A DNA stretch of 64,000 nt from Gammaproteobacteria bacterium (GCA_965116585.1 OZ220714.1:2211461-2275460); one strand, 5' to 3'. Shown: positions 5,379-55,821, counted from the first letter of the stretch. Notes: a model not told the origin generated them from the letters alone. Program-made: numbers and translations.

Positions 5379-6674
5379 GTGGACGTCCTGATTATCGGCG
5401 CGGGTGGACGGGAACACGCCCTGGCCTGGAAAACGGCGCAATCCTCCGAGGTGGAAAAGGTGTACGTGGCGCCGGGCAACGCCGGCACGGCGTTGGAGGA
5501 CAAGGTAGAAAATGTGCCCGTCTCGCCTGCTGACATCCCCGCCCTGATCGAGTTTGCCGGTGAACGCCGGGTGGCCTTGACCATTGTGGGCCCCGAAGCG
5601 CCGCTGGTGGCCGGTATTGCCGACGCTTTTGCCGCGGCGGGATTACGCTGCTTCGGTCCCTCGCAGCAGGCCGCCAGGCTGGAGGGTTCCAAGAGCTTCA
5701 GCAAGGCATTTATGCAACGCTACCACATCCCCGCAGCCGCCAGTGAGACCTTTACCGAACTTGACGCGGCGCTGGATTATGTGCAGTCAAGGAGTCTGCC
5801 GATAGTGGTCAAGGCGGACGGCTTGGCCGCGGGTAAAGGCGTCGTCATCGCCCGCACTCATGCCGAAGCCGGACATGCGTTGAGCGATATGTTGCGCGCC
5901 GGGAAATTCGGTGCCGCCGGCCGCCGGGTGCTGATCGAGGATTTTATCGCGGGTGAGGAAACCAGCTTCATCGTGCTCAGCGATGGTGAGAATGTTGTTC
6001 CGCTGGCCAGTTCCCAGGATCATAAAGCCAGGGACGATGGCGATGCCGGGCCCAACACCGGCGGCATGGGCGCTTATTCGCCTTCTTCCATCCTGGACAA
6101 CACACTACATGAGCGGATCATGCAGCGTGTCATTGAACCTGCCATTGCCGGCATGAGAGAGGAAGGCACACCCTACCGGGGTTTCCTGTATGCCGGGCTG
6201 ATGGTTGATGCCGAGGGCAACCCCCAGGTCCTGGAATTTAACTGTCGCCTGGGCGACCCGGAGACCCAGCCTGTCCTGATGCGTTTGCAGGGAGATTTGC
6301 CGGCCCTGTGTGACCTGGCCCTGGCGCAGCAATTGCGTAACGCCAGGGTTGCCTGGGACCCGCGCCCGGCCGTGGGTGTGGTAATGGCATCGTCGGGATA
6401 TCCTGACCGCGCAACCCGGGACAAGCCCATTACCGGCCTTGGCCGGGCCGACGAGACAGTGAAGATATTTCACGCCGGCACCCGGCAAGCCGGGGATGAG
6501 ATACTGACCAATGGCGGCCGGGTACTGTGCGTGACGGCCTTGGCAGACAGTGTTACCGCAGCCCGCAACAAGGCCTACCACACGGTTGCAGCCATAGCTT
6601 GCGATACCTTGTTTTATCGCACCGATATTGCCCACCGGGCGGTGCAAAGGGAAGCGGCGACCGGCTCCGATTAG
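5379..6674 (+). CDS. purD: Phosphoribosylamine-glycine ligase
   Basis: GTG start. The N-terminus [16 protein letters not shown] is typical of GARS, the fold is ATP-grasp, and the gene follows purH. Confidence 0.95.
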
Positions 6675-6931
6675 TTGTGGGCAGTCCTGCAGAGCCTGCC
6701 CCGTACTTGATACGGGGATGGGCTTGTCGGCGTTTCCCTGAATAATTCCGCTACGCGTAAAAAAATAGTATATCTCCACAAATTATTTTGTAATATAATC
6801 GTAAGACAAGGGGGAAAGTTGGATAACGAAATTCGATTTATCAGCCACATCAGGGATTGCTGTAACCGGCAAAACGACAGGCGCCATATACAAACAACAT
6901 TACTAACTTACTTTCGTAGAGAGGGGTAGAC

Positions 6932-7264
6932 ATGTCTGACACACCACAAGCGATTGCGCAGAAGCAAACCAAATCACAAATCCTGACTCATATTGCCGAA
7001 GACACAGGCCTGACAAAGAAGCAGGTCGGAGCAGTATTGGACTCAATGGCCGCACTGGCCGTGCGCCACCTGCAAAATGGCGCTTCAGGAGAATTTACCG
7101 TCCCGTCAATGGGCGTTAAATTGAGCCGGGTGATGAAACCTGCCCGCGCTGCGCGTCCCGGTATCAACCCGGCAACCGGAGAGAAAATCACCATCGCGGC
7201 GAAACCGGCATCTGTTGCCGTGCGCGCCACGCCACTGAAGGCGCTGAAAGACTCCGTATCCTGA
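6932..7264 (+). CDS. HU-family DNA-binding protein with a short N-terminal extension
   Basis: HU/IHF fold signature (...GEFTVPSMGVKLSRVMKPARAARPGINPATGEKITIAAKP...). Confidence 0.85.
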   Translation: MSDTPQAIAQKQTKSQILTHIAEDTGLTKKQVGAVLDSMAALAVRHLQNGASGEFTVPSMGVKLSRVMKPARAARPGINPATGEKITIAAKPASVAVRATPLKALKDSVS

Positions 7265-7316
7265 CCTGGCCCCGGGCCAGAGTCAGGTCAGGAATCACCT
7301 GATAAAGACCCCTGTT

Positions 7317-7354
7317 TGCGCAGGAGTGGTTCGCTATTCTCCCACTCCTGCGCA
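7317..7354. terminator. 13-bp-stem hairpin between the convergent HU gene and hisH
   Basis: TGCGCAGGAGTGG-12 nt-CCACTCCTGCGCA, read directly. Confidence 0.5.
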
Positions 7355-7401
7355 GGCGTTTCTGTATTGTGCTTACTCATCCTTGGTAACCTTATTCCCG
7401 C

Positions 7402-8058
7402 TCAAGGGCGCCAGTCCAGGAAATTCCTGAGCAGGGTGAGGCCTGGTTGCTGGCTTTTTTCCGGGTGGAATTGTGTGGCGAACAGGTTGTCCCGCGCCGC
7501 CGCGGAGGTGAAATTCACGATATAATCCGTCACTCCGGCCGCATCTGACTCATGGTCCGGTTGCACGTAGTAGCTGTGTACGAAATAAAACCGCTCATCG
7601 TCCCTGATGTTCTTCCACAGGGGATGCGCGGCCGACTGCTTGACCTTGTTCCAGCCCATGTGCGGGATCTTGTACCGATCGCCGTTTTCATCTCTGGCAG
7701 TTGCGGGAAACCTGAGCACTTTTCCCTGAATTAGCCCCAGTCCTGCCGTCCCATCATCCTCCTCGCTGAAGTCCATCAGGGTTTGTAGTCCCAGGCAGAT
7801 ACCCAGGAAGGGTTTGTTGAGGAGGCACTCCCTGAGCAGGGCAGGAAAACCCTTGTCGATAAGGGTCTGCATACATTGGCCTATGGCGCCCTGCCCGGGG
7901 AAGACAATGCGTTCGGCAGCCAGCACCGTGTCGCGCTCAGCGCTGACCTGCACGGAATAGTCCTGTCCGGCCACGTGTTCGAGCGCCTTGGCTACCGAGT
8001 GCAGGTTGCCCGAACCGTAGTCCAGGATGGCGACGGTTTGGCGCGTGCGTATGCCCAT
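7402..8058 (-). CDS. hisH: Imidazole glycerol phosphate synthase, glutamine amidotransferase subunit
   Basis: Class I GATase with VAILDYGSGNLHSV, GICLGLQ (catalytic Cys) and FATQFHPEKS. Confidence 0.95.
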   Translation of the reverse strand: MGIRTRQTVAILDYGSGNLHSVAKALEHVAGQDYSVQVSAERDTVLAAERIVFPGQGAIGQCMQTLIDKGFPALLRECLLNKPFLGICLGLQTLMDFSEEDDGTAGLGLIQGKVLRFPATARDENGDRYKIPHMGWNKVKQSAAHPLWKNIRDDERFYFVHSYYVQPDHESDAAGVTDYIVNFTSAAARDNLFATQFHPEKSQQPGLTLLRNFLDWRP

Positions 8059-8068
8059 GGCCGACAGG

Positions 8069-8665
8069 CTACAGGCTGCCTTTGGTTGAAGGCAGTATTC
8101 CTTCCATGCGCGGGTCCGGTTCGACGGCGGCGCGCAATGCGCGGCCGAACGCCTTGAAGATCGTCTCCGCGATGTGGTGTGTATTCCTGCCGCGCAGGTT
8201 ATCGATGTGCAAGGTCACCAGTGCATGGTTGGCGAACCCCTGGAAAAATTCCCTCAGCAGGTCCACGTCGAATTCACCTACCCGTGCCCGGGGGTATTCA
8301 ACGTGGTATTCCAATCCGGGCCGGCCGGAGAAATCCAGCGCTACCCGTGACAGCGCTTCGTCCAGCGGCACGTAAGCATGCCCGTAGCGGCGTATCCCGC
8401 GCTTGTCCCCAAGCGCCTGCCTGAACGCCTGTCCCAGGGAAATGCCAACGTCCTCAACGGTGTGGTGGGCGTCAATTTCCAGGTCGCCTTGTGCCTTGAT
8501 GCCCAGGTCAAACATACCGTGCCGGGCAACCTGGTCCAGCATGTGCTCGAGAAAGGGAACGCCGACGTCCAGCGCCGCGTCACCTTTGCCGTCCAGGTTC
8601 AGCGCCACGGCTATCTGCGTCTCTTTGGTTGACCTGTCAACGGAGGCCTGTCGTGCATTGCTCAT
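8069..8665 (-). CDS. hisB: Imidazoleglycerol-phosphate dehydratase
   Basis: IGPD motifs ([25 protein letters not shown]). I prefer the internal ATG at 8665 ([16 protein letters not shown]) over the track start at 8749. Confidence 0.92.
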
Positions 8666-8689
8666 GTTTGTTTGCCAATTATCACATAG

Positions 8690-9709
<1,020 letters not shown>

Positions 9710-9750
9710 AGGTTCCTTTGAGGGAAACTCTGGTTAAATCTGAAGTGGCA

Positions 9751-10713
9751 ATGCAACCGACAAGCACGGTATTTCATAACTGTCCGCAGGCGCCGGGTAG
9801 GCGCGTCGCGCTCAGCCGCGCGGTTCTACTGCCTTTCGTCCTCCTGCTCCTGTGCGGTCCCGTACAGGCTGAGCAATACAAGGGTTTTCCGCGCGGGCAT
9901 GCCCTGGTTACCGCAGATGAGGTTAAGTCGATGCTGGACGGAACCGGGCCGAAACCAATAGTGCTGGCTGCGGTCAAGCGTGTCTCCTGGCTGCTTGAGC
10001 ACATTCCCGGCGCCTTCCATGCTCCGCGCAAGGCCTACACCGACCAGGCCGGTATGGCAGTGAACCGTGAGCGCTTCCAGGAATTTGCGCGCGCACTCGG
10101 TATCGACAACGATTCCATCGTGGTCGTTTATGATAATGCCTACGATGCCGCACGCCTCTGGTGGCTCTTCCGCCTGTACGGAAAACCTGACGTGCGGGTG
10201 CTGGACGGCGGTCTGGATGCCTGGAAAGATGCGGGGTACGACCTTGAGCGCGGGCCCGGACGTGCGGCAAGGGTAGCCGGGAAATTTGTCGCGGCGCCGG
10301 CCCTTGCCGACTGGACGGCCGCCATGGCCGACGTCAACCAGGGCCGCACAGATACGGGGACCCGGGTCTGGGATACTCGCGACGTGGGGGAATGGGACGG
10401 CTCAACACAGATCGGCGGCCTGCCGGCAGGCCGCATCGGCTGGGCCCAATTCGCCGGCTGGCGGGATTTCCGCAAGTCAGCAGAAGGCCGCCCGTCAGAG
10501 TTCCGGCCCGCCACCGAGATCGACGCGCTGTTAACGCAGGCAGGCTTTGAACCCGAACACGATCATATCTTCTACTGCCACTCCGGCGTACGCGCCGCCA
10601 CACCGCTGTTCGCACTCTACCTGATGGGGTTCCCCATTGAAAGACTACACCTTTACGATGGCTCCTGGATAGAATGGAGTCAACGGGCTGTGCAGGAGGA
10701 TGGACCAAACTGA
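9751..10713 (+). CDS. Secreted two-domain rhodanese (thiosulfate/3-mercaptopyruvate sulfurtransferase family)
   Basis: It has a signal-like N-terminus (LLPFVLLLLCGPVQA) and the active-site loop CHSGVRAA. The start is uncertain (TTG 9718 or ATG 9751). Confidence 0.8.
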   Translation: MQPTSTVFHNCPQAPGRRVALSRAVLLPFVLLLLCGPVQAEQYKGFPRGHALVTADEVKSMLDGTGPKPIVLAAVKRVSWLLEHIPGAFHAPRKAYTDQAGMAVNRERFQEFARALGIDNDSIVVVYDNAYDAARLWWLFRLYGKPDVRVLDGGLDAWKDAGYDLERGPGRAARVAGKFVAAPALADWTAAMADVNQGRTDTGTRVWDTRDVGEWDGSTQIGGLPAGRIGWAQFAGWRDFRKSAEGRPSEFRPATEIDALLTQAGFEPEHDHIFYCHSGVRAATPLFALYLMGFPIERLHLYDGSWIEWSQRAVQEDGPN

Positions 10714-14333: not shown

Positions 14334-14530
14334 AGGCGGGTATCAACCGTCGTGCCGTTACGGGCAATAAACTTGAACCAGGGGTTCAAGTGGGAACAGC
14401 AGGCGCTACATCAGGCTTCCCACTACAAGTGGGCGTGCACACAATAGCGCGGTTCAGTTCCCTTTCTACACGAAATAAGCTCAAGTTTCTGCAGGCCCAG
14501 ACGCGCACACGACAGAAGATACCCTAAACT
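14334..14530 (-). ncRNA. ssrS: 6S RNA (ends approximate)
   Basis: On the minus strand the closing stem is GGGUAUCUUCUGUCGUG / CACGACGGUUGAUACCC. The 3' half CACUUGAACCCCUGGUUCAAGUUUAUUGCCCGUAACGGCA parallels E. coli 6S CACCUUGAACCAAGGGUUCAAGGGUUACAGCCUGCGGCGGCA. It lies immediately downstream of zapA, as in E. coli. Confidence 0.7.
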
Positions 14531-43616: not shown

Positions 43617-44096
43617 CTAAAATCCCTGGCCTTCCTCCTCTATTGGAGGTCCCGAATAATGGATGTGAACGATTTTCCAGCCGTCAGCCTCTTTTTTCAG
43701 TACCTGGGTTTCCCTGCCTGTCGTTGCGAGGGGTTTCCCATCGGGAAATTCCGCTTCGAAATCCCAGTAGAACTCCGCCCAGGCCGTATCTTCACTCAGG
43801 ATGTGGATTGAAACATCCCGGAATTCAAGCCGCCGCTTTGCGAATGGCCCCATCGCTTCCAGGTAAAACCCGCTCTTTATTTCATCCCAGCCTCTCTGGT
43901 GCCCCCTGGGATGTATAAAGGAAATTTGCCCGGTTTGACTCCATATCTGCTCAGCTAAACTTATGTCCACTTCATTTATCGAAGTGATGTACTGGTCGAG
44001 CAACAGGCGCAGATTTGCTTCCTCATCAGCATGGCCGGCCAGGGATGCCGGGACAAGGAGGATGGAAAACACTATTCTGAGAGCCACATTCATCAA
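43617..44096 (-). CDS. Secreted NTF2/SnoaL-like (DUF4440-like) protein
   Basis: It has a signal peptide (MMNVALRIVFSILLVPASLAGHA) and the size and pattern of an NTF2-like fold. The assignment is weak. Confidence 0.5.
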   Translation of the reverse strand: MMNVALRIVFSILLVPASLAGHADEEANLRLLLDQYITSINEVDISLAEQIWSQTGQISFIHPRGHQRGWDEIKSGFYLEAMGPFAKRRLEFRDVSIHILSEDTAWAEFYWDFEAEFPDGKPLATTGRETQVLKKEADGWKIVHIHYSGPPIEEEGQGF

Positions 44097-44122
44097 AGAT
44101 CTCCCGTGCCGTTATCGACATT

Positions 44123-44130
44123 CAAAAAAA
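44123..44130. repeat. Left copy of the 8-bp target-site duplication CAAAAAAA
   Basis: Identical 8-mers directly abut both TIRs (partner at 46704-46711). Confidence 0.8.
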
Positions 44131-44153
44131 GGGAACTATATACCTAATTGTAC
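44131..44153. repeat. Left terminal inverted repeat GGGAACTATATACCTAATTGTAC
   Basis: It is the exact reverse complement of 46681-46703. A third degenerate copy lies in inverted orientation at 44184-44202. Confidence 0.9.
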
Positions 44154-44226
44154 AAAAAAGCCTTGACATCTGATTTTTAATTGGTACAATTAAGTATCAG
44201 TTAATTGAATTGACAGGATAAATCAG

Positions 44227-45135
44227 ATGAAAAACCACATGAGCATACCTGAATTTTACAAGCGGTTTCCCGATGAAGCAACTTGTAGAGAATTCATTGT
44301 AAATGAACGTTGGAATGGAAAGCCAGTTTGTCCGCACTGCGACCACGACAAGGTATATGAGATAAGCGGTGGAATGAGCTATAAGTGCGCCGGATGCAAA
44401 AAGCGTTTCAGCGTTCGCACCGGAACCGTTATGGAAGACTCTCGCCTCCCATTGCAAACCTGGTTACTGGCGATCAACATGATGACAACTGCTCGCAAGG
44501 GTATATCCAGTGTTCAATTTGCAAAGCATTTAGGAGTAACTCAAAAGACGGCCTGGTACTTGTCTAATCGCATCCGTGAAGCCTGCACAAGCGGGAAAAC
44601 TCCATTAACTGGTGAGATTGAGGTAGACGAAACTTACATTGGCGGTAAAGAGAAGAATAAACACGAATCAAAGAAACACAAGGACGGACGTGGAACGGTC
44701 GGGAAACAGCCTGTTATGGGTATGCTGGAGCGTGGCGGTCCGGTTCGGGCAATGCCTATTACAGGCGCAAAGAAAAAAGTGTTGCATGGACATATTAGCA
44801 ATGAAGTGGCAAAAGGCTCCACAATCTACACTGATGAATGGAAAGCTTACAAAGGACTGAAAGAATATAGTCATGAGTCCGTAAGACACAGCGCGGGCGA
44901 ATATGTCAATGGGGAAGTGCATACAAACGGGATAGAAAGTTTTTGGGCTTTGATGAAGCGGGGATATATCGGCACACATCATTGGTGGAGCATGAAACAT
45001 CTGCATCGTTACGTATCCGAATATGTCTATCGTCACAACACAATAGGTTTGTCTGGCGAGCCAGCACTTGCTACACTTGTCAGAAACAGTGTTGGTAAAA
45101 AGCTGCCCTACAAACAACTGATCGGGGAGGTGTGA
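44227..45135 (+). CDS. IS1595-family (ISXO2-like) transposase
   Basis: It has an N-terminal zinc ribbon CPHC...CAGC, an HTH region and DETYIGGKEKNKH, with the pattern typical of IS1595 DDE transposases. Confidence 0.9.
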   Translation: MKNHMSIPEFYKRFPDEATCREFIVNERWNGKPVCPHCDHDKVYEISGGMSYKCAGCKKRFSVRTGTVMEDSRLPLQTWLLAINMMTTARKGISSVQFAKHLGVTQKTAWYLSNRIREACTSGKTPLTGEIEVDETYIGGKEKNKHESKKHKDGRGTVGKQPVMGMLERGGPVRAMPITGAKKKVLHGHISNEVAKGSTIYTDEWKAYKGLKEYSHESVRHSAGEYVNGEVHTNGIESFWALMKRGYIGTHHWWSMKHLHRYVSEYVYRHNTIGLSGEPALATLVRNSVGKKLPYKQLIGEV

Positions 45136-45136
45136 T

Positions 45137-45298
45137 GTGGAACGAGGAATCATAGACCCTATTGATATGCCTTTTGATGAGGCAGTAAAACAAGTTGTAA
45201 AGCCCGATAGCGCTAAAAAGAAGAAAAAATATGATAAGCTGAAGAAGCGGCCAGTCCGCCAGTCCGCCAGTCCGGTTAGGAGTCATCCATCAAGGTGA
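45137..45298 (+). CDS. Probable detached 5' segment of the methyltransferase gene (53 codons, Lys-rich)
   Basis: Its GTG start lies 6 nt after a strong GGAGG. The frame ends 14 nt before the ATG of the methyltransferase ORF. One extra CCAGTCCG unit would fuse it to the methyltransferase frame. Confidence 0.45.
   Translation: MERGIIDPIDMPFDEAVKQVVKPDSAKKKKKYDKLKKRPVRQSASPVRSHPSR
45251..45274 (+). repeat. Octanucleotide tandem repeat (CCAGTCCG)x3
   Basis: Three exact head-to-tail copies, read directly. Confidence 0.95.
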
Positions 45299-45311
45299 CT
45301 GCGTTAATGTA

Positions 45312-45995
45312 ATGCGGTCGATGCCGGCTGAAAGCGTCCGGCTTGTAGTAACCTCCCCGCCTTACAATATCAAAAACAGCACAGGAAACGGCCTAAAGAA
45401 CGGCAGAGGAGGCAAATGGCCTAATGCCGCACTACAGGCCGGATATGATGTTCACGAAGACTGTATGCCGCATGATGAATACGTTGCCTGGCAGCGTGAT
45501 TGTCTTTCTGCAATGCTGCGCCTGCTCCGGCCCGATGGCGCCATCTTCTACAACCATAAATGGCGAGTTCAAAACGGCCTACTGCAAGATCGTTCGGACA
45601 TTGTTGATGGTTTCCCCGTCAGGCAGATTATAATCTGGCAACGCGCAGGGGGAATTAACTTCAATCCTGGTTATTTCCTCCCCAACTACGAGGTGATTTA
45701 CCTTATAGCTAAACCTGATTTTAAGTTGGCACCGAAAGCTAATGCCTTGGGCTGTGTATGGAGAATTACCCAGGAAAATGATAACCCGCACCCTGCCCCA
45801 TTCCCTGTTGACTTGGCTTCTCGCTGCATTGAATCTGTCACTGGAGGCCCCGTACTGGACCCGTTCATGGGAAGCGGGACAACCGCGATTGCGGCAGAGT
45901 ATGCTGGTGTTGAATGGGTTGGCATTGAAAAGTCGGAGTACTATGTACAGATGGCAAATGACCGGATTAACCGCGTCATTGCTCGCAAACCATGA
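45312..45995 (+). CDS. Beta-class DNA methyltransferase, probably N4-cytosine (SPPY motif IV)
   Basis: Motif IV is VVTSPPYN and motif I is DPFMGSGTTAIAA. The conserved upstream segment GVIHQGDCVNV is in frame (open from 45243) but has no canonical start before ATG 45312. Confidence 0.85.
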   Translation: MRSMPAESVRLVVTSPPYNIKNSTGNGLKNGRGGKWPNAALQAGYDVHEDCMPHDEYVAWQRDCLSAMLRLLRPDGAIFYNHKWRVQNGLLQDRSDIVDGFPVRQIIIWQRAGGINFNPGYFLPNYEVIYLIAKPDFKLAPKANALGCVWRITQENDNPHPAPFPVDLASRCIESVTGGPVLDPFMGSGTTAIAAEYAGVEWVGIEKSEYYVQMANDRINRVIARKP

Positions 45996-46681
45996 CGGTT
46001 ATGACAGACGCCGACCTTTATGCAAGGTTGCGCGGCGTCCTTAAACGTGGATGGACACAGATACCTGATTACTATGGATACCGCGGGACTGGTGCTCCTG
46101 GTTTAATTCTGGAAGAATTACTTGGCCTGAATGCAAGCAACCTGGATTTGCCGGACGCGGGAAAGTGGGAGATCAAATTTCATAGCGGCTCTGCGCCGCT
46201 CACCCTGTTTCACCTGGAAGCACAACCAAAAGGCCACATGCACCACATGGTGCGTGAATTTGGTTGGCCTGATGATAGGGGGCGAACCAGTTTCCGTCAT
46301 ACAATTTATGGTCGGTCAGAAAGAGGGTTTTACGTAAGCAACGAAAGCGGAAGAATTACTGTCAGAAACGACACGGCGAGCGATATTGTTTGGCCTTACT
46401 GGACGCATGATGCACTGATGAATGCGTTTGCGTCAAAGTTCCGAAGACTCATCGCAGTGAAAGGAGTGAAGCGTCGAAACAGGGTTAAGTATGAAACTGC
46501 TCATCTATATTGGGAGCCTCAGATCACCATGTTCATTGAGGCTATAGCGAATGGAATAATAGCAATTGACTTTGATGCAAGGACGAATAACGGACGTGGC
46601 CTCCGCAATCACGGAACAAAGTTTAGGATTCAATATGATAACCTGCGCCACATCTACAATAACCGACAAAAGTTTGGTTAG
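45992..46681 (+). CDS. MvaI/BcnI-family (MutH-like) type II restriction endonuclease
   Basis: GAPGLILEELLGL...DAGKWEIKF...LTLFH and IAIDFDART...RNHGTKFRI parallel BcnI as I recall it. It shares an ATGA overlap with the methyltransferase gene. Confidence 0.8.
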   Translation: MTVMTDADLYARLRGVLKRGWTQIPDYYGYRGTGAPGLILEELLGLNASNLDLPDAGKWEIKFHSGSAPLTLFHLEAQPKGHMHHMVREFGWPDDRGRTSFRHTIYGRSERGFYVSNESGRITVRNDTASDIVWPYWTHDALMNAFASKFRRLIAVKGVKRRNRVKYETAHLYWEPQITMFIEAIANGIIAIDFDARTNNGRGLRNHGTKFRIQYDNLRHIYNNRQKFG

Positions 46682-46703
46682 TACAATTAGGTATATAGTT
46701 CCC
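46681..46703. repeat. Right terminal inverted repeat GTACAATTAGGTATATAGTTCCC
   Basis: It is the exact reverse complement of 44131-44153. Confidence 0.9.
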
Positions 46704-46711
46704 CAAAAAAA
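46704..46711. repeat. Right copy of the 8-bp target-site duplication CAAAAAAA
   Basis: It is identical to 44123-44130. Confidence 0.8.
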
Positions 46712-46731
46712 CGCCACAACAAGTGTGGCGT
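46711..46731. terminator. Hairpin ACGCCACA-ACAAG-TGTGGCGT with flanking A-run and T-rich tail
   Basis: It lies downstream of the TonB-dependent receptor gene (minus strand) and now also of the endonuclease gene (plus strand). Confidence 0.6.
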
Positions 46732-46754: not shown

Positions 46755-49199
46755 CTAGAAGTCATAACGCAGGTTTAGCCCATACATGGGCTTGCCCGGG
46801 TTGGGGTTGTTACACTCCGCCTGGTAATTGAGACTACCGTTGTACTCGATGCTTCCGCAGTTCTTGTCCCCGGTGATGTTATCTATCCAGAAGGCGATTT
46901 CATACTGCTGCTCGCCACCGAATTCGTAGCTTGCCCGGGCATTCCACTGAAACCTTTCATCCACGGTCGTTCGCTGTGAACCGCTGGTGCTGCTGTTACG
47001 CTCATCCATCCAGTGAATATTGGTCTGCAGCGCCAGCAGGCCGTTGCCTACAGGGAAGGTCTTGATGACGAGCCCGGTCAGGCTCCACTCGGGCGAATTC
47101 GGCAGGGGCGCGCCTTCTACCGGTGTTACCAGGGTCCCGGCATCCTTGATCTCCGTATCCAGCCAGCCAACGCCCGCCTGTACATACAGGCTGTCTGTCG
47201 GCGTCCACTTGATATCCACCTCAGCGCCTATGAGTTCGCTTTCCGGGATGTTGAGAAAGGCCACGCGACCCAGGTTGTCCACATCAAATGCCTGCAGGTC
47301 GTCCCACTGGTAGAAAAACACCGCGCCGTTCAGGTCCAGGGCGCCGTCGGCCAGGGTTGACTTGACGCCAACCTCATAGGCATCCATGAATTCCGCTTCC
47401 GTAGGCTGGTCGGCTGTTCCCTGGAAGGCAGCCAGGGCGCGCGTATCGAATGCGCCGGACTTGAAACCCCGGGAGTAACTGGCATAGCCCATGATATCGT
47501 CGGTGAAACGATAGTCTATTCCAGCCTTGCCGCCCCATTCCGTCAGTACCTGCTTGACAGGGATATCGCTGCGGCAGGGCAGGCCGCCCACCGGCGGCGG
47601 GCATTGCCGGCTGCCGTCGGCCGCGGCAACGGTGATCTGGTTGAAGGTATCAAGGTCGATATACGTGCTGAGACCCAGGGGCATACCTCCCGGCGAGCCG
47701 TTATCGGTCTTGGCCGCCACACGGGCAGCACTGTTGCCGGACTTGCGGTCGTCGGTGTAACGCAACCCCAGAGTAATGGTCATTCTGTCGATAAAATCGT
47801 ATTCAACCTGGCCATAGCCTGACCAGATATCCACCTCCTGGTCGATGGCGATGGAGGGAACGATGCCGAAGGGCGCACCGGCGTTGTCGGTGCGGTAAAT
47901 GATGGTGGCCAGGCGGCTGTCGTCATTGGAGTAATACCCACCGGCGATCCAGCGGAAGATACTGTCATCCGTGGACGTCACGCGGATTTCCTGGGAAAAC
48001 ACCTCGGTCTGGCCGCTCTGCCCCGGCATGAAGCCTTGCCCGGTTGAATTGCCGCTGAGGGTCTGGTTGTATTCCACCGTCATTTCGTCATAGGCCGTAA
48101 TGGACACGATACTCATGTTGTCCAGGTCATGGCTGATACGCAGGAAGCCGCCCTCGAAATCCACGTCAGCCTGGTCCGGGGCGCCGTCCCGCATGTTGCG
48201 CCAGCCGTCCAGCGTCGTGCTCTCGGTGCGTCCCCCGGTGAAAGGTAGCACGGTCAGGCAGTCACTGGTGCCCTTGAACTGGCCGGAGCCGCCCTGGAGC
48301 AGGCTGGGACAGTCAATGGGGGCGGCACTGATGGCATGCGGCGTAGCCACACCGTCCACGACGTTGGGGCTGTCAGGGGCCCATATACCGATGGTCTTCC
48401 TGGGGATGCGGCCGCTGCGGTTGTAACCTACGTGGCCGTTGACGAGGACTTCCGTCCTGTCGCTTATTTCGAGCAGGAGTTGTGCGCGGCCGGAATTACG
48501 TTTTATATCGCCCATTTCCTTGCCGCTGAAGAGGTTGTTGAAAATGCCGTCGCGGTTTACGGTCTGGCCCGCTATGCGCAACGCGGCGCGATCGCCGAAC
48601 GGGATATTCAGCGCGCCTTCCACGTCCACGCGGGCTTCATTGCCGAGATTGGTAAAGACGTAACCTTCGATTCCATCGGTACTGGGCTTGCGCGAGATAT
48701 AGTTGATGGCACCGCCCGTAGTGTTACGGCCGAACAGGGTATTCTGGGGACCGCGCAATACCTCGACCCGTTCCATGTCGAACAGCGCGAGTTGGCTCGT
48801 GAACTGGCTGAACAGGGAGACCTCGTCCTGGTACTGCCCCACGGCTTGCAGGCCGGTAATATGCCAGTTGTTGCTACCCACGCCGCGTATGCTCACACCG
48901 GAATTGATGGAGCTGTTGTTCTGCAGTGTCAGGTTGGGAAACAGTGTCACCAGGTCGTCAGTGTCATGGACCCCGAGGGCATCGAGTTGATCGCCGACGA
49001 TGGCATTGATGGCGATGGGAACATCCTGTACGGATTCTGCGCGTTTTTGCGCGGTGACGACGACTTCTTCCAGCCAGCTGCTGTCCTGGGAGAACGCCGG
49101 CGGAGCGATCCAGGCCAGCGTCAGGGCCAGGGCCGTAGCAAACCGGATACCATTCGGGAAACCGGCGTTTGCCGGCTCCAAGGTTCGTAATAAATTCAT
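46755..49199 (-). CDS. TonB-dependent outer-membrane receptor
   Basis: 814-aa protein with a signal peptide, a plug with the TonB-box region EEVVVTAQKR, beta-barrel repeats and the terminal ...LNLRYDF. Confidence 0.9.
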   Translation of the reverse strand: MNLLRTLEPANAGFPNGIRFATALALTLAWIAPPAFSQDSSWLEEVVVTAQKRAESVQDVPIAINAIVGDQLDALGVHDTDDLVTLFPNLTLQNNSSINSGVSIRGVGSNNWHITGLQAVGQYQDEVSLFSQFTSQLALFDMERVEVLRGPQNTLFGRNTTGGAINYISRKPSTDGIEGYVFTNLGNEARVDVEGALNIPFGDRAALRIAGQTVNRDGIFNNLFSGKEMGDIKRNSGRAQLLLEISDRTEVLVNGHVGYNRSGRIPRKTIGIWAPDSPNVVDGVATPHAISAAPIDCPSLLQGGSGQFKGTSDCLTVLPFTGGRTESTTLDGWRNMRDGAPDQADVDFEGGFLRISHDLDNMSIVSITAYDEMTVEYNQTLSGNSTGQGFMPGQSGQTEVFSQEIRVTSTDDSIFRWIAGGYYSNDDSRLATIIYRTDNAGAPFGIVPSIAIDQEVDIWSGYGQVEYDFIDRMTITLGLRYTDDRKSGNSAARVAAKTDNGSPGGMPLGLSTYIDLDTFNQITVAAADGSRQCPPPVGGLPCRSDIPVKQVLTEWGGKAGIDYRFTDDIMGYASYSRGFKSGAFDTRALAAFQGTADQPTEAEFMDAYEVGVKSTLADGALDLNGAVFFYQWDDLQAFDVDNLGRVAFLNIPESELIGAEVDIKWTPTDSLYVQAGVGWLDTEIKDAGTLVTPVEGAPLPNSPEWSLTGLVIKTFPVGNGLLALQTNIHWMDERNSSTSGSQRTTVDERFQWNARASYEFGGEQQYEIAFWIDNITGDKNCGSIEYNGSLNYQAECNNPNPGKPMYGLNLRYDF

Positions 49200-54117: not shown

Positions 54118-55821
54118 TCAAGGGGTAAAACAGGCGTATGGGCCATGGGCTATCACTTCCCATTTTCCGTTTCTGCACAGGTATCGCTTATATGCGGCAC
54201 AATAACTCTGGCCGTTACTGCATTCTGCTTTCTGACAACTCTTGGTTCCCGTTGCAGTGCGCGTCTTCGGCTGGTTATACCTGCCGCTACAGGAGTAATA
54301 GCTCTTCTGGGTAAACGTCTGGCCTTTGCATACCGTACCCGTAGACGGGCCATAAGGACCCCAACTGCAACCGCACCAGGAAGCCGTGCCTTGCGCGGTC
54401 TGGGATTCCTTCTTCCCACAAGTATTGGTGCGGGTCTGGGTGAAACTGCCGCACTTTGAGGCGCGGTCAGGGCTCCATCCCGTCGCGGTGCCGCAGCACT
54501 TTGTTCCTGTAGCACTACGACTCTCCGTACTACAGTTTTTCAGGGTGCGGGTCTGGGTGAAACTGCTCCCTGCACATACGGTACCTGGAGAGGGTTGCCA
54601 CCCGGTGGGCGTACATTCTCTGGGACAGGACTTGGTGCCGGTGGCGCTGCGGCTGTCACTGGAGCAATTGCTCAAGGTACGGGTTTGAGTCAGCTTCTGC
54701 CCACTACAGACTGTACTGGTTGAGGGACTCCAGGAGGTTATCTTGCAGCTTGGCGCACAACGTTTGGTGCCGGTGGCGCCACGGCTGTCCTGGGAGCAAT
54801 CGCTCAGTTTGCGGGTTTGAGTGAACTGTTGGCCGCTACAGACTGTGCCGGTTGCGGGACTCCAGGAACCGGCGTTGCAGGTTTGCGGGCAGTATTTTGT
54901 GCCGGTAGCCCTGCGGCTGTCGCTGGAGCAATTGCCCAGGGTGCGAGTCTGGGTAAATGACGTGCCACTGCAAGCCGTGTTGGTGGCAGGTGTCCAGGAA
55001 GTAACCGTACAGGTTGACGGACAGGACCGGGTGCCGCTGACCGTACGTCTGTCAGTGCTGCAATCACTCAGGGTACGGGATTGGGTCAGGGTATCCCTGC
55101 TGCACGCGCTGTCCCTGCCGGGCGACCAGGCTGTGACCGCGCAGGTCTTCGAACAGGATTTGCTGCCGTTCGCGCGGCGTTGCTCGGTGCTGCAATCCGC
55201 CCGGGTGCGGGTCTGAGTGAAACTGTTCCCGGCACAAATGCTACTGGCGCTTGGCGCCCATGCGCTGGTGGAACATTGTTTCTGCGGTGGCGGTGCGCAA
55301 GCCCCGTTGTCCACGCTGCGGCTGCGGGTCTGCACAGTGGGTTGGCAAAGATCGGGACAGGGCTTGACCGCATCGGTGGGGACGGAGCAGGTGCGCTGCT
55401 GGGTATAGCTGTGGACGCCACAGGCGGTGGGCGGGCTGCCTTGCCAGTTGCCCCAGGTTTCTGCGAGCTGGCACCAGTCCTTGTCGGCGCTCGCCTTGAT
55501 GTGGTCAAGAAAGTTATTGAACGTCGATGAATTTTTCAACACGACCGGGAAGCCGCCGGCACGGCCGGGGTCCACCCACAAACGGTACGGGTAGGGATGT
55601 TCCGTACTGCCGCTATAGCGTTTAACGATATTCTGCCGGTCCTGCGGCCACAGGATCATGACGTCCGGCTGGCCGGACTGCCAGTAACCGTGGTCTCCGT
55701 GTGTGTTGACGCGTTTATCAGTGTCACTGATGGTTTGTGCGCCGGCCGGTTGGGAGATGGCAAGGACGAGCGGCAACAGCTTGATGAGGGTAAATAATTT
55801 TTGTAAGTAGTTCATGTTCAA
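54118..55821 (-). CDS. Secreted cysteine-rich protein with ~9 tandem thrombospondin-type-1-like 44-aa modules
   Basis: It has the signal peptide MNMNYLQKLFTLIKLLPLVLAISQPAGA, an AAGGAG RBS and the repeat W-x-P-x5-C-x-G-x2-F-T-Q-T-R-T-x3-C-S-x-[DE]-S-R-x-A-T-G-T-K-x-C-x3-C. It lies 19 nt downstream of the PilV-like gene. Confidence 0.8.
   Translation of the reverse strand: MNMNYLQKLFTLIKLLPLVLAISQPAGAQTISDTDKRVNTHGDHGYWQSGQPDVMILWPQDRQNIVKRYSGSTEHPYPYRLWVDPGRAGGFPVVLKNSSTFNNFLDHIKASADKDWCQLAETWGNWQGSPPTACGVHSYTQQRTCSVPTDAVKPCPDLCQPTVQTRSRSVDNGACAPPPQKQCSTSAWAPSASSICAGNSFTQTRTRADCSTEQRRANGSKSCSKTCAVTAWSPGRDSACSRDTLTQSRTLSDCSTDRRTVSGTRSCPSTCTVTSWTPATNTACSGTSFTQTRTLGNCSSDSRRATGTKYCPQTCNAGSWSPATGTVCSGQQFTQTRKLSDCSQDSRGATGTKRCAPSCKITSWSPSTSTVCSGQKLTQTRTLSNCSSDSRSATGTKSCPRECTPTGWQPSPGTVCAGSSFTQTRTLKNCSTESRSATGTKCCGTATGWSPDRASKCGSFTQTRTNTCGKKESQTAQGTASWCGCSWGPYGPSTGTVCKGQTFTQKSYYSCSGRYNQPKTRTATGTKSCQKAECSNGQSYCAAYKRYLCRNGKWEVIAHGPYACFTP
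54496..55272 (-). repeat. Six well-conserved tandem 132-bp (44-codon) coding repeats; degenerate copies extend to about 54223-55455
   Basis: The periodicity shows in translation (aa 184-442), and the DNA units look roughly three-quarters identical by eye. Confidence 0.85.

Follow-up and report, generated by a model that had tools for sequence, protein, structure and literature searches.

Does the restriction-modification (R-M) gene pair found beside an insertion sequence (IS) transposase at positions 44,123 to 46,711 of a 64,000-nt stretch of Gammaproteobacteria bacterium DNA (GCA_965116585.1 OZ220714.1:2211461-2275460, hereafter the window) travel with that transposase as the cargo of one small element? 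The preliminary description of this locus, made from the sequence, had proposed that it does. We are confident in the same answer: window 44131-46703 is very probably a transporter insertion sequence (tIS) of the IS1595 family, present in one copy and inserted recently, that carries an R-M passenger. Its borders, the target duplication, a matching empty site, the three protein families that it encodes and the repeated independent insertions of the same unit are all directly observed.

The borders had been described as perfect 23-bp terminal inverted repeats (TIRs) within an exact 8-bp flanking repeat, and both stood up to sequence reading, a repeat finder and shuffling. The sequence GGGAACTATATACCTAATTGTAC at 44131-44153 is matched by its exact reverse complement at 46681-46703, and the repeat finder extended this match to 26 nt at 96% identity. 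When the end sequence was searched with up to 3 mismatches, only two matches were recovered in the 64 kb against 0 expected from 100 shuffles, and no further copies of the ends were found in the window at this threshold. The octamer CAAAAAAA is repeated exactly at 44123-44130 and 46704-46711, which delimits an element of 2,573 bp (44131-46703) with a G+C content of 47%, compared to approximately 58-60% in the flanks, which marks it as foreign in composition. The TIRs start with GG, as is typical of the IS1595 family (here GGG, with 23 of 23 bp matching), and the 8-bp duplication, also typical, is present on both sides and as one copy in the empty site described below. The parts of the element are as follows.

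44123-44130, no strand: left copy of the target-site duplication, CAAAAAAA, read from the sequence and single in the empty-site contig of run X1
44131-44153, plus strand: left inverted repeat (IRL), GGGAACTATATACCTAATTGTAC, a perfect match to the right one; relatives have GGGAAyTATATAC... ends
44163-44190, plus strand: sigma-70-type promoter of the transposase gene tnp, with -35 TTGACA at 44163-44168, a 16-nt spacer and a TG-extended -10 TACAAT at 44185-44190 (11 of 12 matches)
44181-44197, plus strand: internal inverted copy of the inner IRL, pairing with 44140-44156 and overlapping the -10 box (17 nt, 88%)
44227-45135, plus strand: tnp, IS1595-family transposase (Tnp) of 302 aa with a zinc ribbon and a DDE domain, candidate catalytic residues intact
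45137-45298, plus strand: 53-codon open reading frame (ORF) corresponding to the N-terminal extension of the methylase, with the motif IDPIDMPFDEAVKQVV and a Lys-rich linker, recognized by homology to the N-termini of intact methylases
45243-45995, plus strand: catalytic frame of the beta-class methyltransferase (M), PF01555, first ATG at 45312 (227 aa), ...LGVIHQGDC...
45250-45274, plus strand: octanucleotide tandem repeat, (GCCAGTCC) x 3.1, the source of the frameshift, from a repeat search and recomputation of the frames
45992-46681, plus strand: MvaI/BcnI-family endonuclease (R) of 229 aa, PF15515, PD...ExK
46681-46703, minus strand: right inverted repeat (IRR), exact reverse complement of IRL, supported by the sequence, the repeat finder and the shuffles
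46704-46711, no strand: right copy of the target-site duplication, whose minus strand is the U-tract of a terminator, supported by the sequence, the empty site and folding

The strongest evidence for joint mobility came from a natural empty site. A 5,264-nt contig from a sponge metagenome of a different study (run X1) joins position 44122 straight to 46704, with 8 shared or ambiguous letters at the joint. It thereby omits 2,581 bp, i.e. 2,573 + 8, and its flanks are approximately 95-97% identical to the window (3-5% diverged). The restored target that had been predicted by removing the element and one repeat copy thus exists in nature. M and R lie between tnp and IRR, and the empty site is without all three genes; both the empty site and the position of the right end beyond R place the R-M genes within the ends, as cargo. 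The contrary reading, that the repeats are coincidental or that an IS landed beside a resident R-M system with the transposase alone being mobile, draws only on the prior that many R-M genes adjoin ISs, and the empty site refutes it by removing all three genes together. Furthermore, the right end comes after R and not after tnp, ten other elements enclose the same three genes, and the chance expectation for the TIR pair is 0, so that we leave virtually no weight on this reading.

Three further sponge-community runs (X2-X4) each gave one contig that passes uninterrupted from flank through element to flank with 0 differences, indicating that the insertion is fixed there and that no second identical copy exists in that community. 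The perfect TIRs and duplication, together with the absence of the element from a strain diverged by 3-5%, indicate that the insertion is recent. Exact-sequence look-ups of the window transposase and endonuclease returned no other contig, and the exact-sequence look-up of the Proteus methylase P0230 returned no match.

The same three-gene unit was recovered at unrelated sites in other genomes. Among the 80 loci (L001-L080) returned by a transposase scan limited to one genome per species, L001, in a Halieaceae metagenome-assembled genome (MAG), and L003, in a Poriferihabitaceae MAG, share these ends around a tnp-M-R arrangement, and their duplications are TTTGATTT and ATTTGTTT, respectively. 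The loci of the four closest endonuclease homologues (L081-L084) show the arrangement at unrelated chromosomal sites, flanked by ATAGTTTG, TAGGGAAA, AAAATTAT and AAACAAGA, in that order. In a metagenome scan with the methylase, an IS1595 transposase was located directly upstream in 31 of 50 informative loci, and four of the loci found (L099, L120, L137 and L141) are complete tnp-M-R elements of 2.53-2.59 kb with duplications, their transposases being only 48-51% identical. With the window, this makes eleven complete elements, the ten others being at different sites with 8-bp duplications of their own. The tnp-M-R unit has therefore inserted repeatedly and independently in other genomes, which, together with the empty site, indicates that the whole unit is mobile, as initially proposed.

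The three proteins have diverged in step. Tnp, M and R of the window are 85, 85 and 82% identical to those of L081, and 69, 78 and 75% identical to those of L003, respectively. Nonsynonymous divergence (dN) was 0.06-0.25, including between pairs whose methylases are both out of frame today (see below). Synonymous sites (dS) were saturated in every pairwise comparison, so that the ratio is an upper bound only, with dN/dS far below 1. The co-divergence and the low dN against saturated synonymous sites indicate that the unit is old and has been kept under selection.

Several relatives depart from the intact arrangement. L001 bears an IS3-family insertion between M and R, and two frameshifts in M. 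L167 and L168 have lost tnp and kept M and R. In Xylella fastidiosa (L165, 3987-6543), the conserved Xylella pair of an M gene and an MvaI/BcnI-type R gene is located between degenerate copies of the same ends, with a transposase remnant approximately 500 nt upstream of M. This Xylella locus looks like an immobilized descendant of the tIS family in a cultured plant pathogen.

Assignment of the transposase to the IS1595 family, already made in the preliminary description, is borne out by three profiles: DDE_Tnp_IS1595 (PF12762, E 9.7e-44), the N-terminal Zn_ribbon_IS1595 (PF12760, E 1.4e-12) and the NCBIfam model transpos_IS1595 (NF033547, 206.7 bits against a cutoff of 75). The cysteines of the CxxC...CxxC zinc ribbon (C35, C38, C54 and C57) are invariant in 15 relatives, as are the candidate catalytic residues D134, D203, E237 and K244 (E-x6-K), which are present here. 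The best named plasmid relative, ISPepr2, is only 38% identical. Among the ISfinder subgroups (ISPna2, ISH4, IS1016, IS1595, ISSod11, ISNwi1 and ISNha5), the DDE-K residues and the zinc ribbon hint at an ISNwi1/ISNha5-like assignment, as a lead only.

A promoter scan of the plus strand gave just one strong sigma-70 match, the TTGACA-16-TACAAT promoter upstream of tnp. Seven related elements conserve both its -35 box and the GGTACAAT block. A third, degenerate TIR copy had been noticed here and proposed to form a hairpin over the promoter. The inverted copy does exist, at 44181-44197 (17 nt, 88%), but it is better described as part of a conserved -10 region, and a hairpin, though possible, would be weak. 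The -10 block GGTACAATTA is a mirror of the inner left end, and this holds for each of the seven close relatives. Across the seven elements, 81% of the cells pair between 44140-44156 and 44181-44197, compared to 18-40% in slid controls, and compensatory changes occur at two pairs (GTAC...GTAC to GCAC...GTGC in L083 and L084). Folded as single-stranded DNA, the repeat reached a modest -8.3 kcal/mol (z -2.2). Because the transcript of this promoter starts downstream of the repeat, an RNA hairpin would arise only in read-through transcripts. A third transposase-binding site at 44181-44197, covering the -10 box, is at least as likely as a hairpin; through it, the transposase may regulate its own expression.

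The cargo corresponds to what had been predicted as far as its protein families and its ATGA junction are concerned. The catalytic frame of M matches PF01555 (E 7.9e-36) and contains TSPPY as motif IV and DPFMGSGTT as the S-adenosylmethionine motif I. The closest solved relative is 8s9m, a 'DNA cytosine-N4 methyltransferase' (E 3e-34, using the 85%-identical L081 protein as the query), which fits with the SPPY motif. R matches the MvaI_BcnI family (PF15515, E 1.1e-24) and aligns with R.MvaI (E 3.5e-11) and R.BcnI (E 6e-7), the PD...ExK residues being D55, E60 and K62. The M stop and R start codons overlap in an ATGA at 45992-45995, and the R stop codon overlaps the first base of IRR. Hence a PD-(D/E)XK endonuclease is adjacent to and co-oriented with an SPPY/FxGxG methyltransferase, as in type II R-M systems, but the M gene is not intact as in its functional relatives, which are single ORFs of 273-290 aa. 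Of the complete type II system that had been announced, the catalytic frame of M and the R gene are thus present, but the methylase is split by a +16-nt octanucleotide expansion. The 53-codon ORF, whose GTG start follows the tnp stop by one base, is read in a different frame from the catalytic domain. Its homologues are the N-termini of the proteins P0122, P0182 and P0186 and of the intact methylases encoded by L003, L081 and L084, and it matched no family in Pfam or NCBIfam. An Rfam search found nothing inside the element.

M.MvaI and M.BcnIB are N4-methylcytosine (m4C) enzymes for CCWGG and CCSGG, respectively. The window element contains no CCSGG, compared to 4.4 expected from a Markov model, and over eight elements (window, L001, L003, L081-L084 and L165) 19 occurrences were observed against 38 expected, control words being less depleted. 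In the host window, no avoidance of CCWGG or CCSGG was seen. The depletion is a weak hint of a BcnI-like specificity or of self-avoidance, and is insufficient to assign a specificity.

An R-M module as the cargo of a single IS had been considered unusual, which does not hold in this transposase clade. Requiring 18-nt inverted ends and an 8-bp duplication, we delimited 46 relatives among L001-L080, with transposases 42-85% identical to that of the window and ends of the form GGGAAyTATATAC.... Every one of them has an 8-bp duplication, consistent with the hallmark of the IS1595 family. In 43 of the 46, tnp is followed by more than 1 kb of cargo, for the most part genes of methylases and R-M systems; the three exceptions, L028, L075 and L060, come close to plain ISs. 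In the 43, the cargo ranges in size from 1 to 4.3 kb, and its first ORF usually begins within a few bases of the tnp stop. Outside the MvaI/BcnI group, it comprises N6/N4 methylases (8), C5 methylases (4), N6_Mtase and Eco57I-type enzymes, HNH domains fused to methylases (5), Vsr (2), nucleases of the EcoO109I, ThaI, HsdR (HsdR-N) and GmrSD types, and P63C/Bro-N proteins. DNA methylases and R-M genes are the commonest cargo of the clade.

Three side observations concern these relatives. In L083, the tnp-M-R element has as its neighbour, at a distance of only approximately 300 bp and on the minus strand (6006-9804), another IS1595-type transposase (315 aa, distinct from the first), which adjoins an 806-aa N6_Mtase protein and a ParE-like toxin; this is probably another defence-carrying tIS. 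The elements of L028, L034 and L061 (1.3, 2.3 and 5.3 kb), located in different MAGs, have the identical target duplication AATGCAAT, which hints at a preferred or repeated target sequence. At approximately 4720-4740 of L004, the left flank terminates with ...TATATAATTCCC, which is the right end of a further family member, and the shared octamer TTTTCAAT comes immediately after it; this looks like a tandem or nested insertion of the two elements.

The insertion site had been placed in the T/A-tract of the terminator that follows a TonB-receptor gene, 26 nt upstream of a SnoaL-like gene, and our analysis supports this location. The neighbouring features are the following.

46712-46730, minus strand: intrinsic-terminator hairpin CGCCACA-CTTGT-TGTGGCG, 3' of the TonB-dependent receptor gene, from folding
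46755-49199, minus strand: TonB-dependent receptor gene, from domain matches
43617-44096, minus strand: SnoaL-like gene whose start is 26 nt from the insertion, from its ORF and a domain match

Folding gave the terminator hairpin with its seven-U run -17 kcal/mol (z -3.6); a terminator scan had overlooked it because the stem reaches into the T-tract. Duplication of this U-tract as the target octamer left the terminator complete at the right side of the element. The SnoaL-like gene is now separated by the element from all upstream sequence, and the promoter scan detected no outward promoter facing it. The 46 related duplications, all of 8 bp, are 86% A+T overall, and such an A+T-rich target preference fits with insertion into the terminator T-tract here. 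Elsewhere in the window, we observed a 6S RNA (SsrS) gene on the minus strand at 14340-14521 (90.6 bits against a gathering score of 46.4) and a 132-bp tandem repeat at 54632-54942 (2.4 copies, 76% identity).

We propose that the element works as follows. One promoter just inside the left end would drive a compact tnp-M-R operon, the genes of which would be chained by their junctions, with the start of M one base after the tnp stop, the start of R overlapping the M stop and the R stop overlapping the right end. The DDE transposase, presumably the element's own, would recognize the 23-bp ends and insert the 2,573-bp unit through an 8-bp staggered cut, with a preference for A/T-rich octamers such as, in this case, the T-tract of the terminator after the TonB-receptor gene. 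The passengers, a predicted beta-class N4-cytosine-type methyltransferase and a predicted monomeric MvaI/BcnI-type endonuclease, would constitute a type II R-M module that may stabilize the element through post-segregational killing, defend the host, or both.

The split methylase complicates this scheme. In L003, L081, L084, Xylella and other homologues, the intact methylase is one ORF of 273-290 aa that starts 1-4 nt after the tnp stop and consists of an extension (...IEPIDLxF(E/D)(E/D)AVxxVV...), a basic linker and then ...IHQGDC...TSPPY. In the window, M is not one ORF, a point absent from the preliminary description: extension and catalytic frame are split within the 8-bp repeat, through which all three frames are open and whose 8-nt unit is not a multiple of 3. 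Recomputing the frames with 0-7 repeat copies gave fused methylases of 280, 288 and 296 aa with 1, 4 and 7 copies, respectively, and no fusion with 3. A repeat with diverged units and 2.75-20.6 copies occupies the same position in nine elements (window, L001, L002, L081-L084, L167 and L168), and none was found in L003 or in the more distant metagenome elements. The eight arrays linked to a methylase of this type are listed below; six are out of frame and two in frame.

Window, 45250-45274: GCCAGTCC, 3.1 copies, out of frame
L001, 7009-7030: AGCCCAGC, 2.75 copies, out of frame
L081, 4238-4279: CACCAACC, 5.25 copies, in frame
L082, 4152-4268: GACAGTCC, 14.6 copies, out of frame
L083, 4104-4268: GACAACCC, 20.6 copies, out of frame
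L084, 4241-4277: GACAGCCC, 4.6 copies, in frame
L167, 3367-3463: GCAAGTCC, 12.1 copies, out of frame
L168, 3415-3463: GCAAGTCC, 6.1 copies, out of frame

Among the 120 best methylase homologues, approximately 27 have their called start at the internal ATG. The repeat accounted for this in the five inspected but not in L169, which has no repeat, so that the internal-ATG calls are not all repeat frameshifts. Off-frame stops fall 14-35 nt ahead of an ATG that is itself invariant in 29 homologues, and in the window the internal ATG at 45312 comes 14 nt after the end of the upstream ORF; an off-frame stop this close to an invariant ATG makes re-initiation plausible. With three repeat copies placing the extension out of frame, the catalytic domain would be made only from ATG 45312, most plausibly by re-initiation. 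In the out-of-frame elements, the catalytic ORF of M and R are intact and constrained, which implies that the short M works, that the frame flips back often, or that both genes are silent when out of frame.

One possibility, which would add a layer to the tIS reading, is that the octanucleotide repeat is a phase-variation switch, slippage toggling between full-length M (1, 4, 7... copies) and re-initiated or no M and R. A simple sequence repeat (SSR) with a non-triplet unit inside an ORF, open in all three frames, and a copy number that differs among related loci at the same position in nine elements are what such a switch would look like. Furthermore, two arrays in frame out of eight is close to the one third expected from a freely wandering copy number, the catalytic ORF of M and R are under purifying selection in out-of-frame elements, and the off-frame stops fall shortly ahead of an invariant ATG. 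However, all contigs of runs X2-X4 (three runs, two samples) have exactly 3 copies, so that no length variation was seen within the population, bearing in mind that contigs drop rare variants. Three copies is also a short array that probably slips slowly, and L003 and most metagenome relatives have no repeat. In addition, turning off M alone in a type II pair would be expected to be lethal, and co-regulation of R would be needed. We therefore regard the switch as a tentative proposal, clearly less likely to be right than wrong.

Conversely, the R-M cargo of this copy may already be dead, with M inactivated by the repeat expansion, R silent or inactive, and the passengers decaying. The split M, whose truncated product is without part of the predicted core, points in this direction, as do the decaying relatives (L001 with its frameshifts and IS3-family insertion, L167 and L168 without tnp, and Xylella fastidiosa with its Tnp remnant and degenerate ends) and the lack of avoidance of CCWGG or CCSGG in the host window. 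Nevertheless, the perfect TIRs and duplication and the absence of the element from a 3-5%-diverged strain speak for a recent insertion, and no other lesions are present: Tnp, the catalytic frame of M and R are full length with intact catalytic residues. The M and R ORFs are intact even in L167 and L168, which suggests that selection keeps the module, and dN/dS is far below 1. On this evidence, we consider it unlikely that the cargo is dead.

The repeat also marks the boundary at which cargoes differ. In L002 (5587-8340, repeat near 7025-7065), the transposase is 69% identical to that of the window and is followed by the same N-terminal ORF, by (GCCAGTCC)x5 and by GATTAGGAGTC as in the window, and then by an unrelated 400-aa N6/N4 methylase-HNH fusion. 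The window and L002 thus share the unit GCCAGTCC and the next 10 nt before continuing into unrelated methylases. The 30 nt that follow the L002 joint are identical to the loose end, at window position 45284, of a higher-depth contig of runs X2-X4, indicating that the sponge community of the window element also harbours an element of the L002 type. These observations suggest that cargo is exchanged at or just after the repeat. A speculative model, to which we attach rather low confidence, would make the repeat a hypermutable switch that sets M and R output through the frame in which tnp-coupled ribosomes exit (fused, re-initiated or none), and that may also serve as a cargo-recombination joint.

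Returning to the tIS with an R-M passenger, which remains our preferred reading, several points weigh against it. Only one copy is present in the host population sampled, and the evidence for mobility is comparative. The co-transcription of tnp, M and R and their translational coupling are predicted from gene order and junctions. M is not a single intact ORF, and the structure model indicates that the 227-aa product is without a confidently modelled beta-strand (residues 37-40, predicted local distance difference test score ~91) and most of the next helix, so that this product may be inactive. An intact R without a working M should be lethal, which implies either that both are silent or that the short M works. 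Finally, CCSGG is approximately 2-fold depleted in the eight elements, yet the host window shows no avoidance, and this evidence is only suggestive.

How does the element compare with known systems? The tIS concept was defined with the IS1595 family, and tISs are reported to occur in no families other than IS1595 and IS66 (TnCentral preprint). Hallmarks of the IS1595 family are a zinc ribbon (which only the IS1016 subgroup lacks), the DDE_Tnp_IS1595 domain and 8-bp duplications (PMC8101967). tISCpe8 of Clostridium perfringens and MTnSag1 of Streptococcus agalactiae are IS1595-type elements with 25-bp ends, 8-bp duplications and lincosamide-resistance passengers (PMC5704250). The window element resembles them in its single IS1595-type DDE transposase, TIRs of approximately 25 bp, 8-bp duplications and a passenger inside the ends. 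In contrast, their passenger is a resistance gene (with mobilization functions), whereas here a two-gene R-M module is chained to tnp, and their movement or excision was shown experimentally, whereas the window element is known from sequence comparison. In PMC11891212, which cites Siguier 2009, the ISNha5-type tIS, with a transcription-regulator passenger, serves as the textbook example of an IS1595-family tIS, and the passenger classes listed are regulators, methyltransferases and resistance genes. That tIS belongs to the same family and likewise has tnp first and passengers downstream, and differs in its cargo class.

Furuta, Abe & Kobayashi 2010 described R-M units of X. oryzae and N. gonorrhoeae that are bounded by inverted repeats and 8-bp duplications, and for which a related genome shows the empty site; a COG3677 transposase-like gene forms part of the Neisseria unit, but the authors were unable to name the mover (PMC2853133). 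The resemblance to ours is in the R-M genes being enclosed by inverted repeats (perfect or imperfect), in the 8-bp duplication and in the corresponding empty site. The transposase there is absent or was judged inactive, whereas here it is intact and family-typical, and the unit occurs at 11 sites. With the MvaI/BcnI type IIP systems, the window module shares the R family (PF15515) with an aligned PD...ExK and an SPPY N4-cytosine-type partner methylase. The similarity is remote (E 1e-11 to 1e-7), so that the specificity is non-transferable, and two features set the window methylase apart: an additional N-terminal extension and, within this clade, a linker that contains the repeat. In phasevarions, SSRs occur in type III mod and type I hsdM/hsdS genes (PMC7383803). 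The likeness lies in an SSR inside a methylase ORF, a unit not divisible by three and a copy number that varies between related loci. Known phasevarions are mostly of type III or I, in host-adapted pathogens, with 1-7-nt units, whereas this candidate switch, known from sequence alone, has an 8-nt unit and is borne by a transposon of sponge-associated bacteria, within a type II methylase whose endonuclease is a separate protein.

In the open literature, a coverage outside of which the founding paper of the IS1595 family falls, we found no paper on the tnp-M-R family, its defence-rich clade or the repeat. The family seems to be widespread and apparently undescribed, and what departs from known descriptions is the octanucleotide repeat where tnp meets the cargo.

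How R-M systems spread between genomes is an old question: many adjoin mobility genes, and few clear cases exist in which they are the passenger of one small IS. The element described here is an unusually clean case, with an exact empty site, eleven independent tnp-M-R insertions of approximately 2.5 kb, and a clade that is normally loaded with methylases, endonucleases and defence-type genes. The idea of a 'selfish R-M on a selfish IS' becomes directly testable with a 2.6-kb clone. Such compact elements are frequent in environmental and symbiont genomes, and in annotation they are easily mistaken for an IS beside a resident R-M system. Furthermore, R-M expression may be tied to transposase translation through the variable 8-nt repeat that separates backbone from cargo. 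If the repeat does act as a switch and joint, it would represent phase-variable expression of a transposon-borne type II R-M system together with a modular cargo-swapping site, in symbionts instead of pathogens.

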